Positions 5,737 to 62,685 of a DNA stretch of 64,000 bases are shown piece by piece. A model generated the notes under the pieces. The model was given only the letters and a program-made list of their open reading frames with translations, was not told the DNA's origin and searched no databases. The position numbers were made by a program, and so were the translations under genes. The DNA is taken from NCBI GenBank assembly GCA_963781585.1, contig CAWAGQ010000007.1:160001-224000 (forward strand). Reading direction: 5' to 3'. How positions within the stretch are numbered: the stretch's first letter is position 1; every line of letters starts with the position of its first letter. This stretch comes from an uncultured Gemmatimonadaceae bacterium (GTDB taxonomy: Bacteria; Gemmatimonadota; Gemmatimonadetes; Gemmatimonadales; Gemmatimonadaceae).

Positions 5737-5854
5737 GGATAACGGATTGCGCTTCTGCCGCGAGGCCAGGTGAGGCCGCCGCAGTCCTTAGATAAAGAAT
5801 ACTCCGCGGCGGCCGAACCGTTCTGGCCTCGTCGGCAGCAAGCGCGGGTTATGC
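5737..5854 (-). other. attC site
   Basis: GGATAAC-GCGCTT CTGCCG CGAGGCCAG...CTGGCCTCG T CGGCAG C AAGCGC-GTTATGC. Confidence 0.88.
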
Positions 5855-7362
5855 GGCGCCCGCCTCCGACCCGCACTCCTGCGGACATCATGTTCGTGTA
5901 CCACTGTTTCCTCGTGACGTCGGGACAGACAACGCGCCTCCTACCTGATTCGTGTCTCCCTCGGAGCGACCCCACAGTTCGGCCAGGCGCCCTCGCTCCT
6001 TACGCGAGAAATCAACGTTGTGTCCTCGCTCGCCTGGTAGGCGAGCATGGCAACGAGCGTGGCATTGTACTTCAAATCGTCGAACACCACCTTGTCATAG
6101 CTGTCGCGGTTCGTGTGGGAGGCGTCACCGTAGCTCCAACTGACCTCGGCGCTCCACAGTCCGAAGGAAGGTGCCCCCTTGCATGCGAACACAGCGCCGT
6201 CCATGCTCGGCCCCCGCGGCGGCTTGGAATCAGCCTCGAAACGAATACTGTCAGTGAAGTCACGAGGTAGCTGGCTACGCCACGCCTGCAAGTGGTCGTT
6301 GATGCCGACCAGCCCACCACTGATGGCGCCGCCTCCCGACCCTCCGCCGTTTACCCAGCGGACACGTCCAGTACCATCATCCTGATTGAACATGGCCTGC
6401 ATACCAGCAATCACGTCGGGGTGATCCTCGGACCAAGCACGAGACCCAACCATGTGCTGCTCCTCGCCACTCCAGTGCCCCACAAGAATCGTCCGTTTGG
6501 GGTGTGGGTACACGAGGCTCAGAATGCGCATTGCCTCCATCATCATCAGTGTACCGGTGCCGTTGTCGATGGCGCCAGACGCGCCATCGAAGGAGTCGAA
6601 ATGGGCCGAGAGCATCACATATTCGTTCGGCTTTTCCCGTCCAGGAATGCGGGCGATCGTGTTGAACACCGGCACTTCACCGAGCAGTTCCGCATCCGCG
6701 TTGACACGGAGCCGCGGATGCTGGTTGTATTCGGTCAGGCGGTAAACGAGCCCATAGTCCTCGCAACCAAGTGAGATGGCAGGAGCCGTCTCGTTGTCGG
6801 TCATGGCATCGATCCGTGTTGCACCGGCGTTGCCCTTCGGCTGGGACGACACAACGCCTGACACGTGGGCGGCATCGAGCCGCCTACCGAGTCTCGTAAA
6901 GCCCAGGGTACTCAGTGAGAAACCCGCGCCGAGGATGCGTGTGTCCCAGTCGCGCCGGTTCGCCTCAAGCAAACTATCCATTGACCGCTTTGACGCTGGC
7001 GTCGCAAACTTGTCCCAATCGGAGCTAGGTCGACAGGTGGGCTGCGGAGCCGAGATCAGCACATATTTACCCGCCGCCTGCGGCAGCCATGCATCAAACT
7101 CGGTGCTGTCGCGGAATCGGGGCAGGATGATCGTACCCGCCGTGACGTCTTTGCCGCCCGTGCCCGGGCTCCAGCCGAGGAGGGTGGCATCGAGGACGCG
7201 AACGCGTGGACTGACCAAGGCGGTCGTGGCGATGCCCCGTCCCCCGGTGGCCACCCAAAATCCCCCACCCGTGGCCACCCCAAACTCCTCCACCTCGCGT
7301 GATCGTCTGAGCGCCTAATCTCGGGGCGCCGCACGGCGGGACGTTACGCTTGCCTCCTCACC

Positions 7363-10122: not shown

Positions 10123-10232
10123 GCCTAACGTCGCAATTCAGCTGCGGCGCATCACATAGAATGCGGCTGGCGGGCGCAGACCGCCAGACGCTACCGACCG
10201 AAAACGCCGACAGCTGCAATTGCTGGTTATAC
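10123..10232 (-). other. attC site
   Basis: GCCTAAC-GCAATT CAGCTG CGGCG...CGCCG A CAGCTG C AATTGC-GTTATAC. Confidence 0.92.
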
Positions 10233-12172: not shown

Positions 12173-12262
12173 GCCTAACGCCTAGCGTTCAGCTGCGCGG
12201 GCAGTCCAATCAAAGCGGCGAAGCCGCCACCATGGCGCCCGCGTCGGCTGCAACGCGTGGTT
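12173..12262 (-). other. attC of the PIN-TA cassette, split at R'' by an element insertion
   Basis: GCCTAAC-CGTT CAGCTG CGCGGGC...GCCCGCG T CGGCTG C AACG-GTT. The remainder TTAGGCAGCG is displaced to 14741. Confidence 0.88.
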
Positions 12263-12385
12263 GAACTCAATCCGCCTTCGGCGTCTAGCACTGCGATTTC
12301 GGTGCGTGCCCTTACTCCACCGTGGCTGATGAAGTTGGCGGAGTGATGTCCAATGTTCACGCTGAACCCCTTCAGCGAGGACACC

Positions 12386-13258
12386 ATGACACCGCTCCGC
12401 CAACGCATGATCCAGGATCTCCAGCTCCGCGGCTACTCCGATCGCACCGTCGAAGCCTACGTCCGCTCCGTCGCTCAGCTGGCCCGCTTCTATCATGCCT
12501 CACCCGACACCCTCACGGAAGAGCAGCTCCGCGACTACCTCCTTCACCTCACCACCGTTCAGAAGGTCGCCCGGGGCACCCACACCATCGCCCTCTGCGG
12601 CCTCAAGTTCTTCTACCAGCACACGCTTGGGCGCGAGTGGATGGTCCTCAAGGTGGCCCGGCCCAAGGGGGAGAAGAAGCTCCCGGTCGTCCTGAGCCGC
12701 GGCGAGGTCTGGCAAATCCTGGATCATCTTCGACTTCCCGTCTACCGCGTCTGCCTGACGACCATCTACGCCTGCGGCCTCCGCCTCTTGGAGGGCGCCC
12801 GCCTCCAGGTCCCCGATGTCGATGGTGCCCGGAAGCTGCTCCACATTCACGGCAAGCGCCGCAAGGATCGCTACGTCCCGCTCCCGGACGCCACCCTCGC
12901 GCTGTTGCGAGAGCACTGGCGGACGCACCGTAATCCCCTCTGGCTCTTCCCCACGATCACCCGATCCCATGCCGGCGTCCTGAGCGACCCGGCCGTGGGC
13001 CCCATCTCCCGCGCCAGCCTTCAGAGCGCCTTCGTCCGTGCTGTCAGGGCCAGCGGTATCCACAAGCGCGCGCACGTCCACACGCTCCGGCACAGCTACG
13101 CCACGCACCTGCTGGAGGCCGGTGTCAATCTGCGATTGATCCAGGAGTATCTGGGCCACACCAGTCCCAGAACAACCGCCATCTACACCCACCTCACCCG
13201 GGAGCTCCACGACGCCGCGCTGAGTCCGATCAACGATCTCATGGCGCGTCGCTCTTGA
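12386..13258 (+). CDS. Tyrosine recombinase (IntI/Xer-like, no integron insertion domain)
   Basis: YACGLR, GKRRKDR, HTLRHSYATHLLE, LGH...TAIY. GAGGA ribosome-binding site upstream. Confidence 0.95.
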   Translation: MTPLRQRMIQDLQLRGYSDRTVEAYVRSVAQLARFYHASPDTLTEEQLRDYLLHLTTVQKVARGTHTIALCGLKFFYQHTLGREWMVLKVARPKGEKKLPVVLSRGEVWQILDHLRLPVYRVCLTTIYACGLRLLEGARLQVPDVDGARKLLHIHGKRRKDRYVPLPDATLALLREHWRTHRNPLWLFPTITRSHAGVLSDPAVGPISRASLQSAFVRAVRASGIHKRAHVHTLRHSYATHLLEAGVNLRLIQEYLGHTSPRTTAIYTHLTRELHDAALSPINDLMARRS

Positions 13259-13305
13259 GTCGTTAGGCCCGTCGGTTCAGACAGCCACTGCCCCCGAGAC
13301 GGGCC

Positions 13306-14475
13306 GTGGTGGAGCTCGCGGACATCCTCCGCAGGGCGGGGCCCGAGTATCTGCGGACCCACGCCGGACCGCTCCTGCCCTCCCACCGGAGGGCCATGAA
13401 CGACATCGTCCAGTGTCGCACACCGGCCCTCGGTGGCTCGCTCTACCGCTGCGACGAGTGCGCTGCCCTCGCGTACCGCTACCACTCCTGCCGCAACCGC
13501 CACTGTCCCACGTGCCAGGACGATCGGGCCCAGAGATGGTTGGAGCGAGTCCGGCAGCGGCTTCTCCACACCGGCCACTACCTCCTCACGTTCACCCTCC
13601 CACAGGGGCTGCGGTCCGTCGCCCGATCGCACCAGCGCCTGGTATACGCCGCCCTTCTACGCGAAGCAGCTGCCACTGTCCTCACGCTCTGTAAGGACCC
13701 GAACTGGGTGGGCGGCACTCCCGCCATCCTCGCCGTACTCCACACCTGGTCGCGCACCCTGGAGCACCATCCCCACGTCCACCTCCTCGTCAGCGCCGGC
13801 GGCCTCGGCGCGGACGGCACGGCCTGGATCAAGCCCGCTCATTCTCGTTTCCTCGTCCCGGGCTACATGCTCTCCCCGATCTTCCGGGCGAAGATGCGCG
13901 ACGCGTTCGCACGAGCCGGCCTCGCCGGCGAGGTCGATCCCGGCGTGTGGACCCACCGCTGGACGGTCCACGTCAAGGCCATCGGCACCGGGCAGCACGC
14001 CGCACTCTATCTCTCCCGCTACATCTACCGCGTCGCCCTCACCAACCACCGCATCGAACGCTTCAGCAATGATCGCGTCACCTTCCGCTATACCCACGCA
14101 CGCACCGGGGAGACCCGGCGCCTGACGCTGCCGGTGAACACCTTCATCGGCCGTTTCCTCCAGCACGTCCTCCCCCGAGGCTTCACCAAGGTCCGCTCCT
14201 ATGGTCTCCTGAGCCCCGGCCGCCGCACGCAGCTGGAACGGGCCCGCGATCTCCTCGAGCTTCACGCTCGCGACGGCGTCCCGAAGTCCGCGAGCAACAT
14301 CCCGGCGCAGACTCCGGTCGCGCACGACCAGCCACCAACCGCGCCGGACCCCTGCTGCCCGGTCTGTCGGCGCGGTCGCCTCGTGGTCATCGACCACTTC
14401 ACCCGATCGCGCGCGCCGCCGGACTCGTGGTCCTCGCCGTGCTCCACCCCACCGACTGCCACAGTCGCCGCATGA
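13306..14475 (+). CDS. IS91-family HUH (Y2) transposase
   Basis: SCRNRHCPTCQ zinc domain, HPHVH HUH motif, YLSRY. Confidence 0.93.
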   Translation: MVELADILRRAGPEYLRTHAGPLLPSHRRAMNDIVQCRTPALGGSLYRCDECAALAYRYHSCRNRHCPTCQDDRAQRWLERVRQRLLHTGHYLLTFTLPQGLRSVARSHQRLVYAALLREAAATVLTLCKDPNWVGGTPAILAVLHTWSRTLEHHPHVHLLVSAGGLGADGTAWIKPAHSRFLVPGYMLSPIFRAKMRDAFARAGLAGEVDPGVWTHRWTVHVKAIGTGQHAALYLSRYIYRVALTNHRIERFSNDRVTFRYTHARTGETRRLTLPVNTFIGRFLQHVLPRGFTKVRSYGLLSPGRRTQLERARDLLELHARDGVPKSASNIPAQTPVAHDQPPTAPDPCCPVCRRGRLVVIDHFTRSRAPPDSWSSPCSTPPTATVAA

Positions 14476-14750
14476 TCCGCGCGCGTGGTCCGGCGAAGCC
14501 GCGCCCCATGATCGCCGGAGCGCACGGCCAACGCTGCGCCGGCCTCAATCGCGCGCGGCTGGTCCGGTGCGCGGCCCCCGGTCTGGGCTCGGCAGGCCGC
14601 CTGACGCTCGCTTCGCTGGGCGTCCTGGACGTCGCCTCGGGTCACGCACCCGCCTGAAACTCCAAGGCCCTGCCGCGGGGCGGACTGAGTTCAACCCCAG
14701 ATTGTGCCGCGGCTATCGCGCGGCACGAATCTTTACTTCGTTAGGCAGCG

Positions 14751-15435: not shown

Positions 15436-15546
15436 GCCTAACGCCCGCAATTCTGCTGCGGCGCGATCACAACAATGCGGCTGGCGAATGGAATGAGCCA
15501 GCCGCGCACCGCATTATGCGCCGACAGCAGCAATTGCTCGTTGTGC
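15436..15546 (-). other. attC site
   Basis: GCCTAAC-GCAATT CTGCTG CGGCGC...GCGCCG A CAGCAG C AATTGC-GTTGTGC. Confidence 0.92.
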
Positions 15547-15819
15547 CGCGCGGCGTAGAAGAAGCGGAACCACCAGGGCGTCGCGCTCGCGGCGCCGGCA
15601 TGGACACCGGTCTGTCCACCCTCCGCAAAGTGCACATCGGAGAGCGCGTCAGCGAACGCTTTCGCGGACTCGAAGCGATCGGCGGGGAGTTCTCAAGTGG
15701 CGGTCGTGCTTGAGGTCCTGGGCGAGGTAGACGGTGGTCATGCCGCCCTGACCGAGTTATTCCTCGATCCTGCAGCGGCCGGCAAGAGCGGCGTTGAGCC
15801 GTTCGGTATTGTTTCTCAT
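15547..15819 (-). pseudogene. Internally deleted third Ser/Thr kinase
   Basis: MRNNTERLNAALAGRCRIEE*LGQGGMTTVYLAQDLKHDR is joined to PADRFESAKAFADAL. Confidence 0.85.
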
Positions 15820-18463
15820 TTTGCTGCTCCGGTCACGTTCTCGAACACCACAACGCGATCTGGCAACACCCGGCCCAGCTCTCGATGAAACACGAAACGT
15901 TGGTCGTCAGCTGCAAGGCTGTATTCGACCACAAGGGATAGCGAGCGAAACCGCTCCGCTGAAAACAGGACGTGTGGTCTATCGAACACGAATGTCGGCC
16001 CGGGCGTCAGCGGCACGCTCACCATGTTGGCGTTGCCGTCGCGGAAGAACAGCTCGCGGCCACTGTGACTCCACACTGGGTCCGACCCGCCGTCCGGCGA
16101 CACCAGCCAATTGCCGTCGCTCGTGTTCGGGAAGGGCCGCACCCGGACCTGCGCCCGGCCGGTTTCGAGCGTGGTGTACGCCAACCAGCGCCCGTCCGGC
16201 GAGACCGCCGGTTGCGATTCCTGGTACGGCGTGACCACCAGCGGGACTCGCGTGGTGTCACCGGTGCGGCGCACGCCGATCAGGTCGGAGGAGCCGCCAC
16301 CACCGTTGCGATACACGATCCAGCGATTGTCCGCGGTGAAAAAGACTTCGTGCACCTGCTCCGGATCGTAGAGCAGGGGTCGCTCGGGCTCCGACGCATC
16401 GGCGCGACGGATGTACGCCTCGCGCTTGCCGGCGCGATCCGCCATGTAGGCGACGGAGGTTCCGTCAGGTGTCCATTGCGGCCGGATGCCGCCATTGAAG
16501 CTCAACTGCGTCATCCGCCCGTTGTCCAGTTGCCGCACCCACACCTGCCCGCCGCGTGTTACCGCGAGCCGGCGACCATCGGGTGAGAGCTTGAAGGCGC
16601 CGTTCGGTGTCAGCTGGTCGTTCCAGCCGGGGTCCACCGGGCGGACCACGCCTTGTCGCGTGACCCAGACGACGTCAGTGGTGTCGTGAGCGTCGCTTTC
16701 CGCCATGTAGATCAGCGTGCCTTGCGACGACGTGGTGAAGTCGGGAACGAAGTCAGGCGCGCCCACTGACCCGAATACGACGCGCTCGACAAGCATCCGT
16801 GGCTCACCGGACAAACGCAGGTTGCGGGCGTCAAACGACTGGATCATCAGCGCACCGTTGCGCTCGGGCGCAAACACCAGGTATCCCGGCACATACTCGG
16901 CGTACGATCCGCGGGTCAGCACACGGTACTTGCCGGTGGCCTGGTCGGCGATGGCGATCTCAGAGCGCGCCGCATTCGCCCGATACTTGATGACGAAGAG
17001 GATGCCACGCCCGTCGGGCAGCGCGCACGGAAAGACGTGGTCGTCCTCGCCCGCCGCCGAGTCCACCGTGGTGAAGCGAACCGGCGTGCCGCCCTGCGCG
17101 GACACCTTCACGATGCCGGTGCGGCCGGAACCGTGAGCGTAGATGAACCCATCGGACGACCACGTCGCGCCGGCGTAGCCAATCCCGGTCGTGGCCACCG
17201 GAACCACAGGTCCGCCGTCCAATGGCACGACCTTGATGGTGCCGCGCGGACTCACGAAGCCGATCTTCGCGTTGTCGGGCGAGAAAAACGGAACTTCGGC
17301 ACCCTCCGTACCGGCGATCTCGACCGGCGACAACTGGTCGCGTGGCAGGACGAACAGCCGCCGCTCACCGCCCGCACCCTCGTGCAGGTACGCCAGGCGT
17401 GAGCCGTCCGGCGACAGTGCGATGCGGCGGAACCAGGCGCTCACCTCCCGCCCCTCAGGAAGTTGGAGCATGTACCGTCGCACGGGCGACTCCGGCGACG
17501 CACGTGTCCCACGCCAGCCCCACGCCGCCAGCGCTAGCGCGACGACGCCAACGGCGGCCACGGCAACGAACACGGGGTCGCGGAACCTGCCCAGGGCGGA
17601 TGCGGGCTGCACGCGCGTGGTTCCCGCTGCGGTGAATGCCGGGTTGACCAGGGCATCGGCAAACGCCTTGGCGGAGTCGAAGCGATCGGCCGGCACCTTC
17701 TCGAGCGCCTTGCGCAGTGCGTCGGCGACGTTGGGTGGCACCGACTTGCGGTGCTGCGTCACATCGCCGGCCGGCTCGGCGATGATCTTCATGATGATCT
17801 GCTGCGCGCTGCCACCCAGGTGCGGCGGCTGGCCAGCGAGCATCTCGTAGAGCACCGATGCCAGCGAGTAAATGTCGCTGCGACCGGTGATCTCCTTCTC
17901 CGCAGTGGCTTGCTCGGGCGACATGTAGTGCGGCGTGCCGAGCGAGAGGCCGGTCTCGGTCATGCGTCCGCCGGCGGCGGCAGAGACAGCGAGCGCAATG
18001 CCGAAGTCGGCCACCATGGGGCGACCGTCGTGGAGCAGGATGTTCTCGGGCTTGATGTCGCGGTGGATGACGCCGTGGCGGTGGGCGTAGTCCAGCGCGT
18101 CAGCGACCTGCGTGGTGATGCGAACGGCTTCGTCGACGCCGAGTTGTGTTTCGCGATCGAGTTTCCCGCGCAGGGTCTCCCCTTCTATATATGGCATCAC
18201 GTAGTACAGGAATCCGTCCGCGGTGCCGGAGTCGAAGAGCGGCAGGATGTGCGGGTGCTGGAGCGCGGCGGTGGTCTTGATCTCCACGACGAACCGTTCC
18301 GCGCCGAGCACGGCGGCGAGCTCGGGCTTCAGGACTTTGACGGCGACCTTGCGGTCGTGCTTGAGGTCGGCGGCGAGGTAGACGGTGGCCATGCCGCCCT
18401 GACCGAGCTGCTTCTCGATCTTGTAGCGACCCGCGAGTGCCGCGTTGAGGCGCTCGGTGCCGC

Positions 18464-18467
<4 letters not shown>
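15816..18467 (-). CDS. Ser/Thr protein kinase with TM helix and TolB-like propeller
   Basis: LGQGGMATV, HRDIKPEN, DFG, SPE, then SPDG repeats. Confidence 0.95.
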
Positions 18468-21094
<2,627 letters not shown>

Positions 21095-21278
21095 TGGGCG
21101 CTAGTGCAGCCGGCGGTCGGGCTCGGCACGATTGCAATATGGCGCTGGGCGGCCCGCCCAGCGAGCGATCCTGAATTCGACGAAGGGCGCGAAGGATAGT
21201 GGCGCCATCCTTGCTCTTGCCCGTTCAGCTGCGGCTATTCACCAAACGCAGCGAGAGGCTCGATGCCGGATGACGTCG

Positions 21279-21386
21279 GCACAACGGACTGGCAATAAGC
21301 TGCGGTGCAGTTCAACCGTTGGTCGCCGTGTCGCAACACGGCGGCCTTCCAGAGCCTGCGCCGGCTGCTTCATTGCCTTGTTAGGC
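21279..21386 (-). other. attC site
   Basis: GCACAAC-GGCAAT AAGCTG...CTGCTT C ATTGCC-GTTAGGC. Confidence 0.88.
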
Positions 21387-22754: not shown

Positions 22755-22861
22755 GCCTAACGCTCCAGCATAAGCTGCCCCGCATCCAACAATCGCGCGC
22801 GCTGGCGCAGCACAGCGCGCGCTTCCTTCAGAGTATGCGGGGTCAGCTTCATGCTGTTGTT
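22755..22861 (-). other. attC of the first cassette, split at R'' by an element insertion
   Basis: GCCTAAC-CAGCAT AAGCTG CCCCGCAT...ATGCGGGG T CAGCTT C ATGCTG-GTT. The remainder TTAGACAC is at 25340. Confidence 0.9.
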
Positions 22862-22984
22862 GAACTCAATCCGCCTTCGGCGTCTAGCACTGCGATTTCG
22901 GTGCGTGCCCTTACTCCACCGTGGCTGATGAAGTTGGCGGAGTGATGTCCAATGTTCACGCTGAACCCCTTCAGCGAGGACACC

Positions 22985-23857
22985 ATGACACCGCTCCGCC
23001 AACGCATGATCCAGGATCTCCAGCTCCGCGGCTACTCCGATCGCACCGTCGAAGCCTACGTCCGCTCCGTCGCTCAGCTGGCCCGCTTCTATCATGCCTC
23101 ACCCGACACCCTCACGGAAGAGCAGCTCCGCGACTACCTCCTTCACCTCACCACCGTTCAGAAGGTCGCCCGGGGCACCCACACCATCGCCCTCTGCGGC
23201 CTCAAGTTCTTCTACCAGCACACGCTTGGGCGCGAGTGGATGGTCCTCAAGGTGGCCCGGCCCAAGGGGGAGAAGAAGCTCCCGGTCGTCCTGAGCCGCG
23301 GCGAGGTCTGGCAAATCCTGGATCATCTTCGACTTCCCGTCTACCGCGTCTGCCTGACGACCATCTACGCCTGCGGCCTCCGCCTCTTGGAGGGCGCCCG
23401 CCTCCAGGTCCCCGATGTCGATGGTGCCCGGAAGCTGCTCCACATTCACGGCAAGCGCCGCAAGGATCGCTACGTCCCGCTCCCGGACGCCACCCTCGCG
23501 CTGTTGCGAGAGCACTGGCGGACGCACCGTAATCCCCTCTGGCTCTTCCCCACGATCACCCGATCCCATGCCGGCGTCCTGAGCGACCCGGCCGTGGGCC
23601 CCATCTCCCGCGCCAGCCTTCAGAGCGCCTTCGTCCGTGCTGTCAGGGCCAGCGGTATCCACAAGCGCGCGCACGTCCACACGCTCCGGCACAGCTACGC
23701 CACGCACCTGCTGGAGGCCGGTGTCAATCTGCGATTGATCCAGGAGTATCTGGGCCACACCAGTCCCAGAACAACCGCCATCTACACCCACCTCACCCGG
23801 GAGCTCCACGACGCCGCGCTGAGTCCGATCAACGATCTCATGGCGCGTCGCTCTTGA
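22985..23857 (+). CDS. Tyrosine recombinase (copy 2)
   Basis: Identical translation to 12386-13258. Confidence 0.95.
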   Translation: MTPLRQRMIQDLQLRGYSDRTVEAYVRSVAQLARFYHASPDTLTEEQLRDYLLHLTTVQKVARGTHTIALCGLKFFYQHTLGREWMVLKVARPKGEKKLPVVLSRGEVWQILDHLRLPVYRVCLTTIYACGLRLLEGARLQVPDVDGARKLLHIHGKRRKDRYVPLPDATLALLREHWRTHRNPLWLFPTITRSHAGVLSDPAVGPISRASLQSAFVRAVRASGIHKRAHVHTLRHSYATHLLEAGVNLRLIQEYLGHTSPRTTAIYTHLTRELHDAALSPINDLMARRS

Positions 23858-23904
23858 GTCGTTAGGCCCGTCGGTTCAGACAGCCACTGCCCCCGAGACG
23901 GGCC

Positions 23905-25074
23905 GTGGTGGAGCTCGCGGACATCCTCCGCAGGGCGGGGCCCGAGTATCTGCGGACCCACGCCGGACCGCTCCTGCCCTCCCACCGGAGGGCCATGAAC
24001 GACATCGTCCAGTGTCGCACACCGGCCCTCGGTGGCTCGCTCTACCGCTGCGACGAGTGCGCTGCCCTCGCGTACCGCTACCACTCCTGCCGCAACCGCC
24101 ACTGTCCCACGTGCCAGGACGATCGGGCCCAGAGATGGTTGGAGCGAGTCCGGCAGCGGCTTCTCCACACCGGCCACTACCTCCTCACGTTCACCCTCCC
24201 ACAGGGGCTGCGGTCCGTCGCCCGATCGCACCAGCGCCTGGTATACGCCGCCCTTCTACGCGAAGCAGCTGCCACTGTCCTCACGCTCTGTAAGGACCCG
24301 AACTGGGTGGGCGGCACTCCCGCCATCCTCGCCGTACTCCACACCTGGTCGCGCACCCTGGAGCACCATCCCCACGTCCACCTCCTCGTCAGCGCCGGCG
24401 GCCTCGGCGCGGACGGCACGGCCTGGATCAAGCCCGCTCATTCTCGTTTCCTCGTCCCGGGCTACATGCTCTCCCCGATCTTCCGGGCGAAGATGCGCGA
24501 CGCGTTCGCACGAGCCGGCCTCGCCGGCGAGGTCGATCCCGGCGTGTGGACCCACCGCTGGACGGTCCACGTCAAGGCCATCGGCACCGGGCAGCACGCC
24601 GCACTCTATCTCTCCCGCTACATCTACCGCGTCGCCCTCACCAACCACCGCATCGAACGCTTCAGCAATGATCGCGTCACCTTCCGCTATACCCACGCAC
24701 GCACCGGGGAGACCCGGCGCCTGACGCTGCCGGTGAACACCTTCATCGGCCGTTTCCTCCAGCACGTCCTCCCCCGAGGCTTCACCAAGGTCCGCTCCTA
24801 TGGTCTCCTGAGCCCCGGCCGCCGCACGCAGCTGGAACGGGCCCGCGATCTCCTCGAGCTTCACGCTCGCGACGGCGTCCCGAAGTCCGCGAGCAACATC
24901 CCGGCGCAGACTCCGGTCGCGCACGACCAGCCACCAACCGCGCCGGACCCCTGCTGCCCGGTCTGTCGGCGCGGTCGCCTCGTGGTCATCGACCACTTCA
25001 CCCGATCGCGCGCGCCGCCGGACTCGTGGTCCTCGCCGTGCTCCACCCCACCGACTGCCACAGTCGCCGCATGA
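23905..25074 (+). CDS. IS91-family HUH transposase (copy 2)
   Basis: Identical translation to 13306-14475. Confidence 0.93.
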   Translation: MVELADILRRAGPEYLRTHAGPLLPSHRRAMNDIVQCRTPALGGSLYRCDECAALAYRYHSCRNRHCPTCQDDRAQRWLERVRQRLLHTGHYLLTFTLPQGLRSVARSHQRLVYAALLREAAATVLTLCKDPNWVGGTPAILAVLHTWSRTLEHHPHVHLLVSAGGLGADGTAWIKPAHSRFLVPGYMLSPIFRAKMRDAFARAGLAGEVDPGVWTHRWTVHVKAIGTGQHAALYLSRYIYRVALTNHRIERFSNDRVTFRYTHARTGETRRLTLPVNTFIGRFLQHVLPRGFTKVRSYGLLSPGRRTQLERARDLLELHARDGVPKSASNIPAQTPVAHDQPPTAPDPCCPVCRRGRLVVIDHFTRSRAPPDSWSSPCSTPPTATVAA

Positions 25075-25339
25075 TCCGCGCGCGTGGTCCGGCGAAGCCG
25101 CGCCCCATGATCGCCGGAGCGCACGGCCAACGCTGCGCCGGCCTCAATCGCGCGCGGCTGGTCCGGTGCGCGGCCCCCGGTCTGGGCTCGGCAGGCCGCC
25201 TGACGCTCGCTTCGCTGGGCGTCCTGGACGTCGCCTCGGGTCACGCACCCGCCTGAAACTCCAAGGCCCTGCCGCGGGGCGGACTGAGTTCAACCCCAGA
25301 TTGTGCCGCGGCTATCGCGCGGCACGAATCTTTACTTCG

Positions 25340-25753
25340 TTAGACACCGTGCGCCGCGCGTCCGCGCATGCGCCACGCCGTCGCGGCCAGCCGTCGAATG
25401 AGATCCACTGCAATCCCGAACGCCACGAGCGCGGCTACCATGAGTGGCCAGCCGCTCACCTGCCGGGTGCCAAGGAGCAGCGCAGTGACGCCCAGCCAGA
25501 GCAGCGCGGCTCGCCAGAGTGCGCGCCGATCGCGTGGAAGCGCCAGCCAGGTCGCACCCAGCAGCAGCACGGCGGTGCCGACGCTGTAGCCGGCAGTGAC
25601 GGCGGCGGCGTGAGGGTCGGCGATCGGTGCCACTGGACCCGGTGCGCGCGCGACGCTCACCCCGACGATCGCCACGAACGCAGCGGTAACGAGCCACACC
25701 GCGGTGAGGACGCTGAGCGTCACGATGCGAAGCCATGGAGGAACCACACTCAT
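25340..25753 (-). CDS. First cassette gene, small membrane protein
   Basis: About four hydrophobic segments. Stop TAA lies within R'' (GTCTAAC). Confidence 0.75.
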   Translation of the reverse strand: MSVVPPWLRIVTLSVLTAVWLVTAAFVAIVGVSVARAPGPVAPIADPHAAAVTAGYSVGTAVLLLGATWLALPRDRRALWRAALLWLGVTALLLGTRQVSGWPLMVAALVAFGIAVDLIRRLAATAWRMRGRAAHGV

Positions 25754-25782: not shown

Positions 25783-25802
25783 GTCTAACAAATATTGGAC
25801 CC
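25783..25802 (-). other. Putative attI core
   Basis: Minus strand GGGTCCAATATTT-GTTAGAC with no attC stem upstream. GTTAGACAC matches the R'' of the first cassette. Confidence 0.7.
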
Positions 25803-25857
25803 TCATCCCCATCCCCGTCACCCGTTCCCATACGACCCATACGTTACCCCAAGCCGC

Positions 25858-26859
25858 CTAATCCGACAATCCTGGTCCACTCAGTAACCGATCCACCGGG
25901 CTCTGAACGCCAAGCCTGCCGCGATTCAGAACGTGCGTGTAGATCATCGTCGTCGACACATCACGATGTCCCAGCAATTCCTGCACAGTGCGAATGTCGT
26001 AACCGGCTTCGAGCAGGTGCGTCGCAAATGAGTGCCGCAAGGTGTGACAGCTCGCCCGTTTCCCGATCCCACTGGCGCGCACTGCCCTCGCCATTGCACG
26101 CTGAATTGCGGTCTCATGATAATGATGCCGGCGGGTCGTGCCGGTCTCGCGCTGCTGATAGCGGCGCCGCGCGGGAAAGACCCATTGCCACGCCCATTCC
26201 GTCGCGGCGTTCGGGTACTTCCGGACCAAGGCGTCCGGAAGGTCCACCGCACCGCCGCCCACTGCCAGATCGCTGGCGTGCAGTGCCCGCACGCGCTCAA
26301 GGTGCTCGCGCAATAATGGTACCGCGTGAGTGGGCAGCATCGTGACGCGGTCACGCGCCCCCTTTCCGCGACGCACCCGGATTTCTCCGCGGTCGAGGTC
26401 CAGGTCTTTCACCCGCAGCGTCAGGCACTCCATCAGCCGCAGCCCGCTTCCATAGAGAAGCATTCCTACCAGGCGCGGCACGCCATCGAGCATGCGCAGC
26501 ACGCATCGTACCTCTCTTTCGCTGAGAACCACGGGTAACCGGTGCGGGGCCCGAGCCTTCGGCACATCGCCGAGGCCGTCGAGTGGCCGATCGAGCACGT
26601 GCTTGTAGAGGAACTGCAACGCGGCGAGTGCCTGTGCCTGCGTGGCCGCGGACAGCTTGCGCTCGACCGCCAGCGCGGTGAGGAACTGCACGACCTCACG
26701 TTCGCCCAAATCCTTCGGATGACGGAGGCCGTGGAACTTGACGAAGCGCCGCGCCCAACCGACATACGCCTGTTCCGTTCGCGGGCTGAAATGGCCGAGC
26801 CGCAGATTCGCGCGCAAGGAATGCAGTAGTTTCGATTTGGGCTGCACGAGGTCCCCCAC
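25858..26859 (-). CDS. intI: Integron integrase
   Basis: Tyrosine-recombinase motifs plus the integron-specific insertion ([33 protein letters not shown]). Confidence 0.97.
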
Positions 26860-55199: not shown

Positions 55200-55286
55200 G
55201 GGCGACGATTCTGATGGAAGAGCAGTCGCCCATCCAGTGGCCGCGCGCCGGCGATCCGATTAGAGTCAACGCATGTCCTCGCCTCC
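55200..55286 (+). repeat. Direct repeat, copy 1
   Basis: 44-bp exact core 55232-55275 equals 62631-62674, with similar flanks. Confidence 0.85.
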
Positions 55287-62600: not shown

Positions 62601-62685
62601 GACGATGCTGATGGAGCGGGGTGGTCGCCAATCCAGTGGCCGCGCGCCGGCGATCCGATTAGAGTCAACGCATGCCCTCGCCTCC
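62597..62685 (+). repeat. Direct repeat, copy 2
   Basis: Matches 55200-55286. Confidence 0.85.

Follow-up and report, generated by a model that had tools for sequence, protein, structure and literature searches.

An IS91-family element of the ISAzo26 type whose right end lies inside integron attC sites, antisense to the cassettes

What is the 64-base feature at positions 14679-14742, where an inverted-repeat arm is followed by a bulged hairpin resembling part of a folded integron attC site? It lies in the window, i.e. the whole stretch of 64,000 nucleotides that was analysed. A preliminary description took it for one end of a mobile element that had hijacked an attC site. According to our analysis, the feature is the right end of an attC-homing element of the IS91 family, inserted inside the R'' box and antisense to the cassettes.

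The letters quoted earlier are exact, both for the right end at 14679-14742 and for the left end at 12261-12276. The right end reads as an arm, CCC, a bulged hairpin, a T-rich spacer and G|TT, and its arm agrees with the left one in 16 of 17 letters when the boundary G is counted. The features of the element are as follows.

12260..12262, plus strand: left boundary triplet G|TT, with the crossover somewhere within GTT; GTT is also present at 14740-14742
12261..12276, plus strand: left terminal inverted-repeat arm, which starts with TTGAAC and, together with the preceding G, is GTTRRRY-like
12261..14740, plus strand: element copy 1, an IS91-family element of the ISAzo26 type, 2480 bp, 100% identical to copy 2 and to the copy on contig C13
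14679..14695, plus strand: right terminal inverted-repeat arm, which ends with GTTCAAC and is RYYYAAC-like
14696-14698, plus strand: CCC spacer between the right arm and hairpin R
14699..14732, plus strand: hairpin R, subterminal, 13 bp with a 7-nt loop, identified by folding and covariation
14733..14740, plus strand: 7-nt T-rich spacer TTACTTC (14733-14739) and the terminal G of the element (G14740)
22860..25339, plus strand: element copy 2, with the right-end feature recurring at 25278-25341

In hairpin R, positions 14699-14711 pair with 14719-14732, the loop is formed by 14712-14718, and G14727 is bulged 5 bp above the base. The genome holds three copies of the element, 100% identical, two in the window and the third on contig C13. 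Within the window the identical stretches are 12260-14744 and 22859-25343. The 16-mer of the arm (allowing two mismatches) is found four times in the 64-kb window versus 0.02 times in shuffles, because the whole element is present twice, with two ends in each copy. That these ends are the ends of an element is borne out by the three identical copies and by an exact empty site, see below, and the 64-base feature is confirmed as the right terminus of a 2480-bp IS91-family element of the ISAzo26 type.

The element was earlier said to encode an HUH enzyme and a recombinase, and matches to Pfam and NCBIfam agree with this:

12353..13258, plus strand: tyrosine recombinase, 301 aa, IntI-like (Pfam Phage_integrase and Phage_int_SAM_4)
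13306..14475, plus strand: Y2-HUH transposase of the IS91 family, 389 aa (Pfam Y2_Tnp and Zn_Tnp_IS91)

The transposase matches PF04986 at 6.9e-45 and PF14319 at 2.6e-27, i.e. it has the Y2_Tnp type and the zinc-binding N-terminus that characterise the IS91 family, and it obtains 353.1 bits against NF033538 (cut-off 125). Its translation holds the candidate motifs HVH and YLSRYIY (YxxxY), which were assigned by eye. For the recombinase, the best NCBIfam match is the integron integrase model TIGR02249, with 201.5 bits in two stretches, under the cut-off of 265. Model positions 182-215 are left unmatched, so the protein is without the IntI-specific insert, and by score and insert alike it falls outside IntI proper. 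With the IntI of the host array it shares 35% identity. The best solved relative is VchIntIA (2a3v), whose residues ~177-242 are unmatched; the alpha-I2 and beta-4,5 contacts of VchIntIA with extrahelical bases fall within these residues, according to excerpts of PMC3053210.

The same gene pair, in the same order, is found in ISAzo26 of Aromatoleum aromaticum EbN1, where a RefSeq "IS91-like element ISAzo26 family transposase" (NF033538) lies beside a tyrosine recombinase. The ends are alike as well: on the left, G|TTGGAC directly follows a hairpin, and on the right the arm GTCCAAC is followed by a long hairpin. Our element shows what characterises the ISAzo26 type, a recombinase upstream of the transposase on the same strand and ends of the form G|TTGRAC...GTYCAAC with a hairpin. 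However, ISAzo26 is located on a plasmid, after a perfect plain palindrome, and not in an integron. A full-text literature search found no paper on the ends or targets of ISAzo26, the matches naming only ISWz1.

Classical IS91, IS1294 and ISCR elements share with our element a Y2 or Y1 HUH transposase and possibly the absence of an obvious target duplication. They would also share the single-stranded circle model and the mobilisation of DNA beside the termination end, as given for them in excerpts of PMC5714925, PMC7923331 and PMC10288648. The right end of classical E. coli IS91 (two copies aligned) consists of a small hairpin and 7 nt, as in our element, but a 121-aa ORF takes the place of the recombinase, and the transposases are only 26-29% identical. 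IS91 is described in excerpts of PMC10288648 and PMC5714925 as inserting 5' to GTTC/CTTG and as having no terminal inverted repeats, whereas our element has G|TT as target and arms that match at 16/17 positions. In the two aligned E. coli copies GTTC/CTTG is on neither flank, and their sequences do not anchor the ori/ter polarity.

Both copies in the window are located in the cassette array of an integron:

25885..26829, minus strand: host integron integrase intI (TIGR02249, 434.5 bits, over the cut-off)
12173..12260, plus strand: target attC of a Phd/PIN toxin-antitoxin cassette (copy 1), read on the bottom strand and comprising the R' box and the body as far as the boundary G
14741..14746, plus strand: second part of the split R'' box, TTAGGC; next to it is the stop codon of the minus-strand Phd antitoxin gene
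22755..22859, plus strand: target attC body of the first cassette (copy 2), with the R'' remainder TTAGAC at 25340-25345

An attI-like GTTAGAC lies on the minus strand ~95 nt downstream of intI, and the cassettes extend leftward along this strand. In the first cassette the R'' box, GTCTAAC, is complementary to the cassette's own first bases. The array contains at least eight attC sites in one orientation and reaches down to 4963. On the plus strand the 3' arm of the host attC sites carries two extra bases at a distance of 6 nt. Because the cassette genes are on the minus strand and the extra bases on the plus-strand 3' arm, the plus strand of the window is the attC bottom strand. Both copies split their attC between the G and the TT of the R'' box and are antisense to the cassettes, with the coding strand of the element continuous with the attC bottom strand. 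The earlier claim that the hijacked sites are integron attC sites thus holds for both copies in the window, and the flanks of relatives, discussed below, agree with it.

The empty site of copy 1 is preserved on a 162-nt contig from a soil metagenome (run X1), which joins 12259 to 14740 with zero differing letters. In this contig the attC is intact, 12173..12260 being contiguous with 14741 onward. The run may be the source sample of the genome, in which case the empty site would represent a presence/absence polymorphism or an excision and not an independent lineage. The element has GTT at both boundaries and the empty site has it once, as would result either from a crossover inside a shared GTT or from a duplication of 3 bp. 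In two relatives (L116 and L094) the right flank begins with AT and not TT; this favours the absence of a duplication, but concerns only 2 of 69 right ends.

To see what is conserved at the ends, we turn to the relatives of the element. The recombinase has abundant relatives (7999 of 8000 scored candidates at E <= 1e-20), many of them 80-94% identical and found on metagenome contigs of roughly 2.5 kb. We examined 29 genome loci and 80 metagenome loci. A Smithellaceae chromosome carries three copies (L021, L022 and L024). Eighteen of the 29 genome loci are 46-88% identical to the query recombinase; fifteen of these have a transposase ORF downstream, and the contigs of the remaining three are too short. 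Herpetosiphon, Hydrogenophaga and Agathobacter plasmids have the pair of recombinase and transposase as well (30-43% transposase identity). In Firmicutes, Betaproteobacteria and Chloroflexota the two genes remain linked even where the transposases are only 30% identical.

At the left ends of the relatives, TTGAAC is followed by a small hairpin whose letters vary by subfamily, and TTGAAC is preceded by G in 69 of 71 cases. A small local hairpin overlaps the left arm; it is kept in relatives and weakened in the copies of this genome. For the right end a covariance model was built from 34 ends, which gave 69 matches at E <= 0.001 in 100 loci. Among these matches the terminal base is G in 66, the first base after it T in 66, the second T in all 69, and the next A in 52.

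The inner hairpin is well conserved. In the 34 sequences 86.6% is paired, compared with 68.4% when shuffled (a level reached in 0 of 500 shuffles), the score for covariation is 0.461 versus 0.141, and nine of the 13 pairs are changed on both sides. Controls in which the hairpin was slid along these sequences are 40-58% paired. In an alignment of 68 distinct sequences, which was fitted to the covariance model and therefore leans towards the structure, 87.7% is paired versus 68.8% when shuffled, and 11 of 13 pairs are changed on both sides. The preliminary description had named covariation across homologues as a check on the hairpin, and the hairpin passes it. All 34 right ends have the loop letters GCT..CGC, a bulge or mismatch in the stem is recurrent, and conservation extends to the lower stem, the distance of 6-8 nt to the terminal G, and an RYYYAAC box 2-5 nt upstream of the hairpin.

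This conservation argues against the hairpin being a mere terminator of the recombinase-transposase operon, placed beside ordinary IS inverted repeats and like attC by coincidence. A simple scan does list 14702-14728 and its T-rich tail as terminator-like. However, a terminator accounts neither for the conserved lower stem, bulge position, GCT..CGC letters, distance to the G and RYYYAAC box, nor for targets that are attC sites cut at the matching GTT, and we consider this explanation extremely improbable.

Across 37 distinct end pairs, the terminal arms agree on average at 12.3 of their 16 positions. At the ten variable arm positions, an arm agrees with its own partner at 6.4 and with partners from other elements at 4.6. 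Covariation of this kind would also be produced by a protein that binds both ends as duplexes, and is no proof of pairing between the arms.

Conservation is stronger evidence than folding energy that the feature is not due to chance. The right end alone folds into a hairpin weakly above chance, with a z-score of -1.9 on the plus and -2.3 on the minus strand. When 14740 is joined to 12261 in the computer, the junction folds into an outer stem of 16 bp, an internal loop of 3 + 7 nt, 5 bp, a bulge, 8 bp and a 7-nt loop, with an energy of -27.4 kcal/mol on the plus and -29.1 kcal/mol on the minus strand. The z-score is about -8 against mononucleotide shuffles, largely because of the inverted repeat. 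The fold is as the preliminary description had it, i.e. joined ends would form a forked hairpin with RYYYAAC/GTTRRRY and one extrahelical base. A natural head-to-tail junction of two different elements (locus L069) also folds into a forked hairpin. The junction of 14740 with 12261 was absent among the listed contig pieces (Logan contigs from four runs, 5-7% of sampled words), which carries no weight either way.

How similar is this junction to an attC? Both have pairing boxes of the form RYYYAAC/GTTRRRY (in the element, GTTCAAC with G + TTGAAC), and on the bottom strand of the host attC, as on the plus strand of the junction, the order is R box, internal loop, 5 bp and a bulge on the 3' arm. 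In contrast, the junction has one bulge where the host attC has two, 6 nt apart. Its internal loop has sides of 3 + 7 nt and not ~5 + 3, i.e. the asymmetry is reversed, and its outer stem has 16-17 bp instead of 7. A canonical attC, as defined in excerpts of PMC3053210, has two extrahelical bases on one arm, ~6 nt apart, and canonical R/L spacers, and the junction has neither. The resemblance is real yet non-canonical, and the junction is a look-alike of attC, not a member of the attC family. The non-canonical spacing had been pointed out before, and the loop sides of 3 + 7 against 5 + 3 nt agree with it.

The target sites of the relatives were compared with random anchors, using left flanks of at least 75 nt and a crude arm-alignment score. 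An attC-like hairpin is anchored at the insertion point in 28 of 65 left flanks (the tandem locus L069 among them) and in 21 of 1420 random anchors. With a stricter score the numbers are 18 of 65 and 2 of 1420. In the last ten positions of the flank, CAA is found at -10 to -8 and TT at -3 and -2, which fits the 3' end of an attC bottom strand. According to excerpts of PMC3053210, extrahelical bases of attC follow the rule T-N6-G/C. For 22 of the 27 recognised attC targets the extra bases (T-N6-C) are on the 3' arm of the element plus strand, i.e. the bottom strand; for three (L025, L099 and L118) they are on the 5' arm, and two are equal. The placement is strongly, though not absolutely, orientation-specific.

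A measure of the target as a single long hairpin from ViennaRNA was discarded due to poor separation (23 of 67 versus 32 of 313 at 0.6, and 13 versus 4 at 0.7). For locus L047 we considered the left flank as the 5' part of a tRNA; ARAGORN found no gene and Rfam no match. Genomes that bear the element are not enriched in intI: it is present in four of nine, one of these under the cut-off, versus 126 of 300 genomes of the phylum. Here an element-bearing genome is one with a relative of the transposase at E <= 1e-60, which identified nine among 300 other genomes of the phylum. These are related MAGs, in which repeats are often unassembled, and the unpublished G057, G097 and G182 are included.

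The layout of the element invites the view that it is a plain integron cassette, moved by the host IntI, with the arms and hairpin as its attC and the two genes as cargo. On the plus strand the order is TTGAAC, genes, GTTCAAC, hairpin and G, the first six bases are complementary to the element's own RYYYAAC box, the site passes a crude attC scan at threshold, and two of the three copies are in the array next to intI. However, it is inverted relative to every other cassette, a placement common to 22 of 27 relatives, and it is inserted at R'' and not at R', where the IntI crossover takes place on the attC bottom strand at AA|C. Furthermore, spacing and bulges are non-canonical, recombination genes of their own are carried throughout the family, and the third copy, ISAzo26 and many relatives are outside integrons. 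A plain cassette is therefore very improbable. It had been noted earlier that, once inserted, the element reads as a cassette on the minus strand. This stands insofar as both hybrid sites flanking the inserted element pass the crude attC scan, albeit only at threshold. Such a cassette would extend from about 14693 down to 12179.

Among the 65 left flanks, 37 are not recognised as attC by the crude score, and several of these have a smaller hairpin just before G|TT. Together with the plain palindrome that precedes ISAzo26, this may point to a hairpin followed by G|TT as the target, and not to attC itself. In general, insertion might require "hairpin, short spacer, G|TT", attC being the chief class of such sites.

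Such a rule could be read by the Y2 transposase alone. It would recognise a bulged hairpin, a short spacer and G|TT on a single strand at both ends and at the target, cut after the attC hairpin on the left and after hairpin R on the right, form a single-stranded circle, and reverse the reaction at a new hairpin with G|TT. Hairpin R would then mimic attC because the same protein reads donor end and target, and the recombinase would be an accessory for multimer or cointegrate resolution or for copy-number control. This has the merit that a single rule covers both boundaries, the apparent lack of a target duplication, the orientation bias and the hairpin targets that are not attC. Read on the plus strand, the hairpin of the element and the target each have a bulge on the 3' arm, 5 bp up from the base, and this bulge lies upstream of G|TT. 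A small hairpin and 7 nt are also found at the end of classical IS91, which is reported, in excerpts of PMC10288648 and PMC5714925, to insert 5' to a tetranucleotide and to form single-stranded circles without a recombinase. However, an HUH enzyme acting alone leaves no role for a recombinase gene that is linked to the transposase across phyla. Nor does it leave a role for arms of 12-17 bp, which would bury the cleavage site in a duplex, and HUH enzymes cut single-stranded DNA. We regard this explanation as rather unlikely.

In the reading with two enzymes, which has the best support and to which we give an even chance, the HUH enzyme would make a single-stranded circle and the IntI-like recombinase would exchange one strand of it with the attC top strand, as the mirror image of cassette integration. 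The Y2-HUH transposase would peel off or replicate one strand of the element as a single-stranded circle, in the rolling-circle manner of IS91. In this circle the terminal arms would pair into a long duplex resembling an R box (GTTCAAC with GTTGAAC), and the duplex, the bulged hairpin R and the unpaired spacers would form a forked hairpin resembling a folded attC. The recombinase would bind this fold as well as a folded attC and swap a single strand between them at AA|C, which corresponds to G|TT on the opposite strand. The junction would then be resolved by replication, as it is for integron cassettes. Being the mirror image of the IntI reaction, the exchange would place the element at R'' in inverse orientation.

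The reactive strands in this reading would be the minus strand of the element and the attC top strand, as required by the polarity of cleavage. The crossover G|TT is on the 3' arm of the plus-strand fold, while the minus strand reads AA|C on the 5' arm, both in the junction and in the attC top strand. Tyrosine recombinases such as Cre, Xer and IntI cut with the binding arm 5' of the cut. G|TT on the 3' arm of the plus strand therefore has the wrong polarity, and a tyrosine recombinase fits only the minus strand. The boundaries, target position, orientation and conservation are observed, and which enzyme cuts where is inferred.

Against the involvement of two enzymes speaks that the recombinase would have to use the top strand of attC, where the bulges fall on the arm that is cleaved, and we know of no IntI that prefers such a substrate. 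In favour of it are the linkage across phyla, the long arms found only in this subgroup, and the kinship of the recombinase to IntI. The long arms go with the recombinase, since classical IS91, which is without the recombinase gene, is described in excerpts of PMC5714925 without inverted repeats. On the other hand, classical IS91 has a hairpin and 7 nt without a recombinase, so that the HUH enzyme alone could explain the hairpin and G|TT. It is a tentative and rather doubtful extension that the element is a two-enzyme "mirror-image integron", in which the HUH enzyme makes the circles and the recombinase is derived from IntI, has lost the insert that reads extrahelical bases, and has specialised on the top-strand fold of attC. 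If this is true, the element invades integrons at R'', in inverse orientation, by means of an attC look-alike that it makes itself.

The combination of enzymes has parallels. In the integration of CTX-phi-type phages via XerCD, and in IS200/IS605 with its HUH enzyme, a hairpin makes the site of recombination or cleavage, one strand is exchanged and replication completes the reaction. In both systems a rolling-circle HUH protein yields single-stranded circles. They differ in using the host Xer at dif or HUH alone, whereas here both enzymes are encoded by the element and the target is attC. With integron cassettes the element shares its crossover at G|TT and its cassette-like layout and, in the two-enzyme reading, the use of a folded single strand with an extrahelical base as substrate. 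IntI is both the nearest family and the nearest solved structure of the recombinase, but unlike IntI cassettes the element inserts at R'' in inverse orientation.

Only two kinds of attC-homing elements are reported, the IS1111-attC elements and the group IIC-attC introns. Both are found near the 5' end of attC and antisense to the cassettes, according to excerpts of PMC3001079, and our element has the same placement. Neither the DEDD transposase and guide RNA of IS1111-attC nor the ribozyme and reverse transcriptase of group IIC-attC introns are among its two ORFs. In a full-text literature search, which reached neither ISfinder and TnPedia nor the primary papers on IS91, we found no description of attC targeting or attC-like ends in the IS91 family. 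Integrons are the main gene-capture platforms of bacteria. If the reading holds, an abundant lineage of the IS91 family would be a third kind of attC-homing element, and the unexplained recombinase gene of this IS91 subgroup would obtain a function. It would also be a tractable case of a rolling-circle enzyme that feeds a folded single-strand substrate to a site-specific recombinase. The insertions interrupt attC and put antisense DNA between cassettes, which should alter cassette excision and expression, including those of the first cassette next to attI in this window.

Once the element is inserted, the hybrid sites would still be attC-like, so that the host IntI, or read-through at the left end, could move it together with the neighbouring attC body. 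This bears on the third copy. Copies 1 and 3 share 88 nt of attC body on the left side of the element with 100% identity, and this body is found nowhere else in the genome. According to the empty-site contig it is native to the Phd/PIN cassette, and no other attC-like site is present within 20 kb of copy 3. As the shared body is native to the array and copy 3 is outside it, the element has carried the attC body out. The transported piece stops where IntI makes its crossover, at the outer edge of the R' box, and hairpin R has travelled too. For the minus-strand cassette proposed earlier, which IntI might excise, the carried attC body is a point in favour. The travelling of hairpin R is a point against, as simple excision by IntI would leave the hairpin behind.

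Movement of DNA from the left flank is also a known consequence of failed termination in IS91/ISCR (excerpts of PMC7923331 and PMC5714925), which is in line with an HUH enzyme acting alone. The carried segment, however, ends at the outer edge of the R' box and not at a G|TT on the same strand. Neither simple read-through of the IS91 type nor a single excision by IntI explains both ends of copy 3. A path in two steps would do so, in which either a larger circle is integrated or IntI replaces a cassette beside a resident hairpin R. We also looked for a pseudo-attC at the site of copy 3, but the fold of its hypothetical empty site showed no clear one, and only GTCTAAC followed by a weak palindrome is visible.

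If the two-enzyme reading holds, it provides a route by which attC sites leave arrays, and elements carrying attC bodies could plant attC beside new genes and so seed new cassettes. Copy 3 follows GTCTAAC and lies directly upstream of a gene start.

At the element locus L069 (positions 1577-1700), two different elements stand head to tail, the second beginning with its left end where the first finishes with its right end. Their junction is a natural example of joined element ends, and the head-to-tail pair suggests that an occupied site remains a target for further insertion. Extra right-end hairpins, which may be solo ends or parts of further copies, were found at other loci that already hold one element:

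L010:2685-2753, extra right-end hairpin
L027:57-130, extra right-end hairpin
L013:550-617, extra right-end hairpin
L065:75-142, minus strand, extra right-end hairpin
L107:5459-5527 and 6205-6273(-), extra right-end hairpins

A further locus (L018:2440-2520) has a direct duplication at its boundary, of a 21-nt right-end stretch that covers the 3' stem, the spacer and GTT. The left end of the relatives contains a hairpin of 6-7 bp that overlaps the repeat arm. In the three copies of the Gemmatimonadaceae genome, two letters differ here (window 12261-12300 in copy 1) and the hairpin is weakened, with a z of -1.2. Despite this, the copies are presumably recent, since all three are identical. The third copy and a decayed relative lie on other contigs of the same genome:

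C13:307518-310085 (locus L001), element copy 3, identical to the other two
C11:125405-125919 (locus L128), decayed relative

Beside copy 3, the 88-nt attC body from the site of copy 1 is present at a new place. The outer limit of the attC R' box is precisely where the piece carried with the element stops, immediately before a gene start. Apart from the carried one, no attC-like site was found within 20 kb of copy 3. The decayed relative retains the recombinase N-terminus in fragments (residues 2-83, 43-61% identity), and after these a diverged right end that scores 41 bits with the covariance model, adjoined by GTTAGGC; its left end is not recognisable. The attC scan also found attC-like sites on C11.

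The integron of the window and its array contain the following features:

25784-26829, intI, with a GTTAGAC resembling attI downstream of its stop codon
7241-9794, IS21-type element, a 529-aa IstA with an rve domain and a 255-aa IstB
15546-21279, inter-attC interval of 5.7 kb, two tandem paralogous genes on the minus strand

Cassettes and intI share one orientation, and the layout is of the 'inverted-integrase' type. The IS21-type element is bordered by a 54-nt imperfect inverted repeat and flanked by attC sites at 5737-5854 and 10123-10232. The 5.7-kb interval is unusually large for a cassette; its genes each encode a Ser/Thr kinase plus PD40-repeat protein (883 and 876 aa), and a 119-nt repeat occurs three times in it with 2.6-kb spacing. 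Elsewhere in the window, a 62-nt direct repeat (55225-55286 and 62624-62685) has 97% identity between its two copies, 7.4 kb apart.
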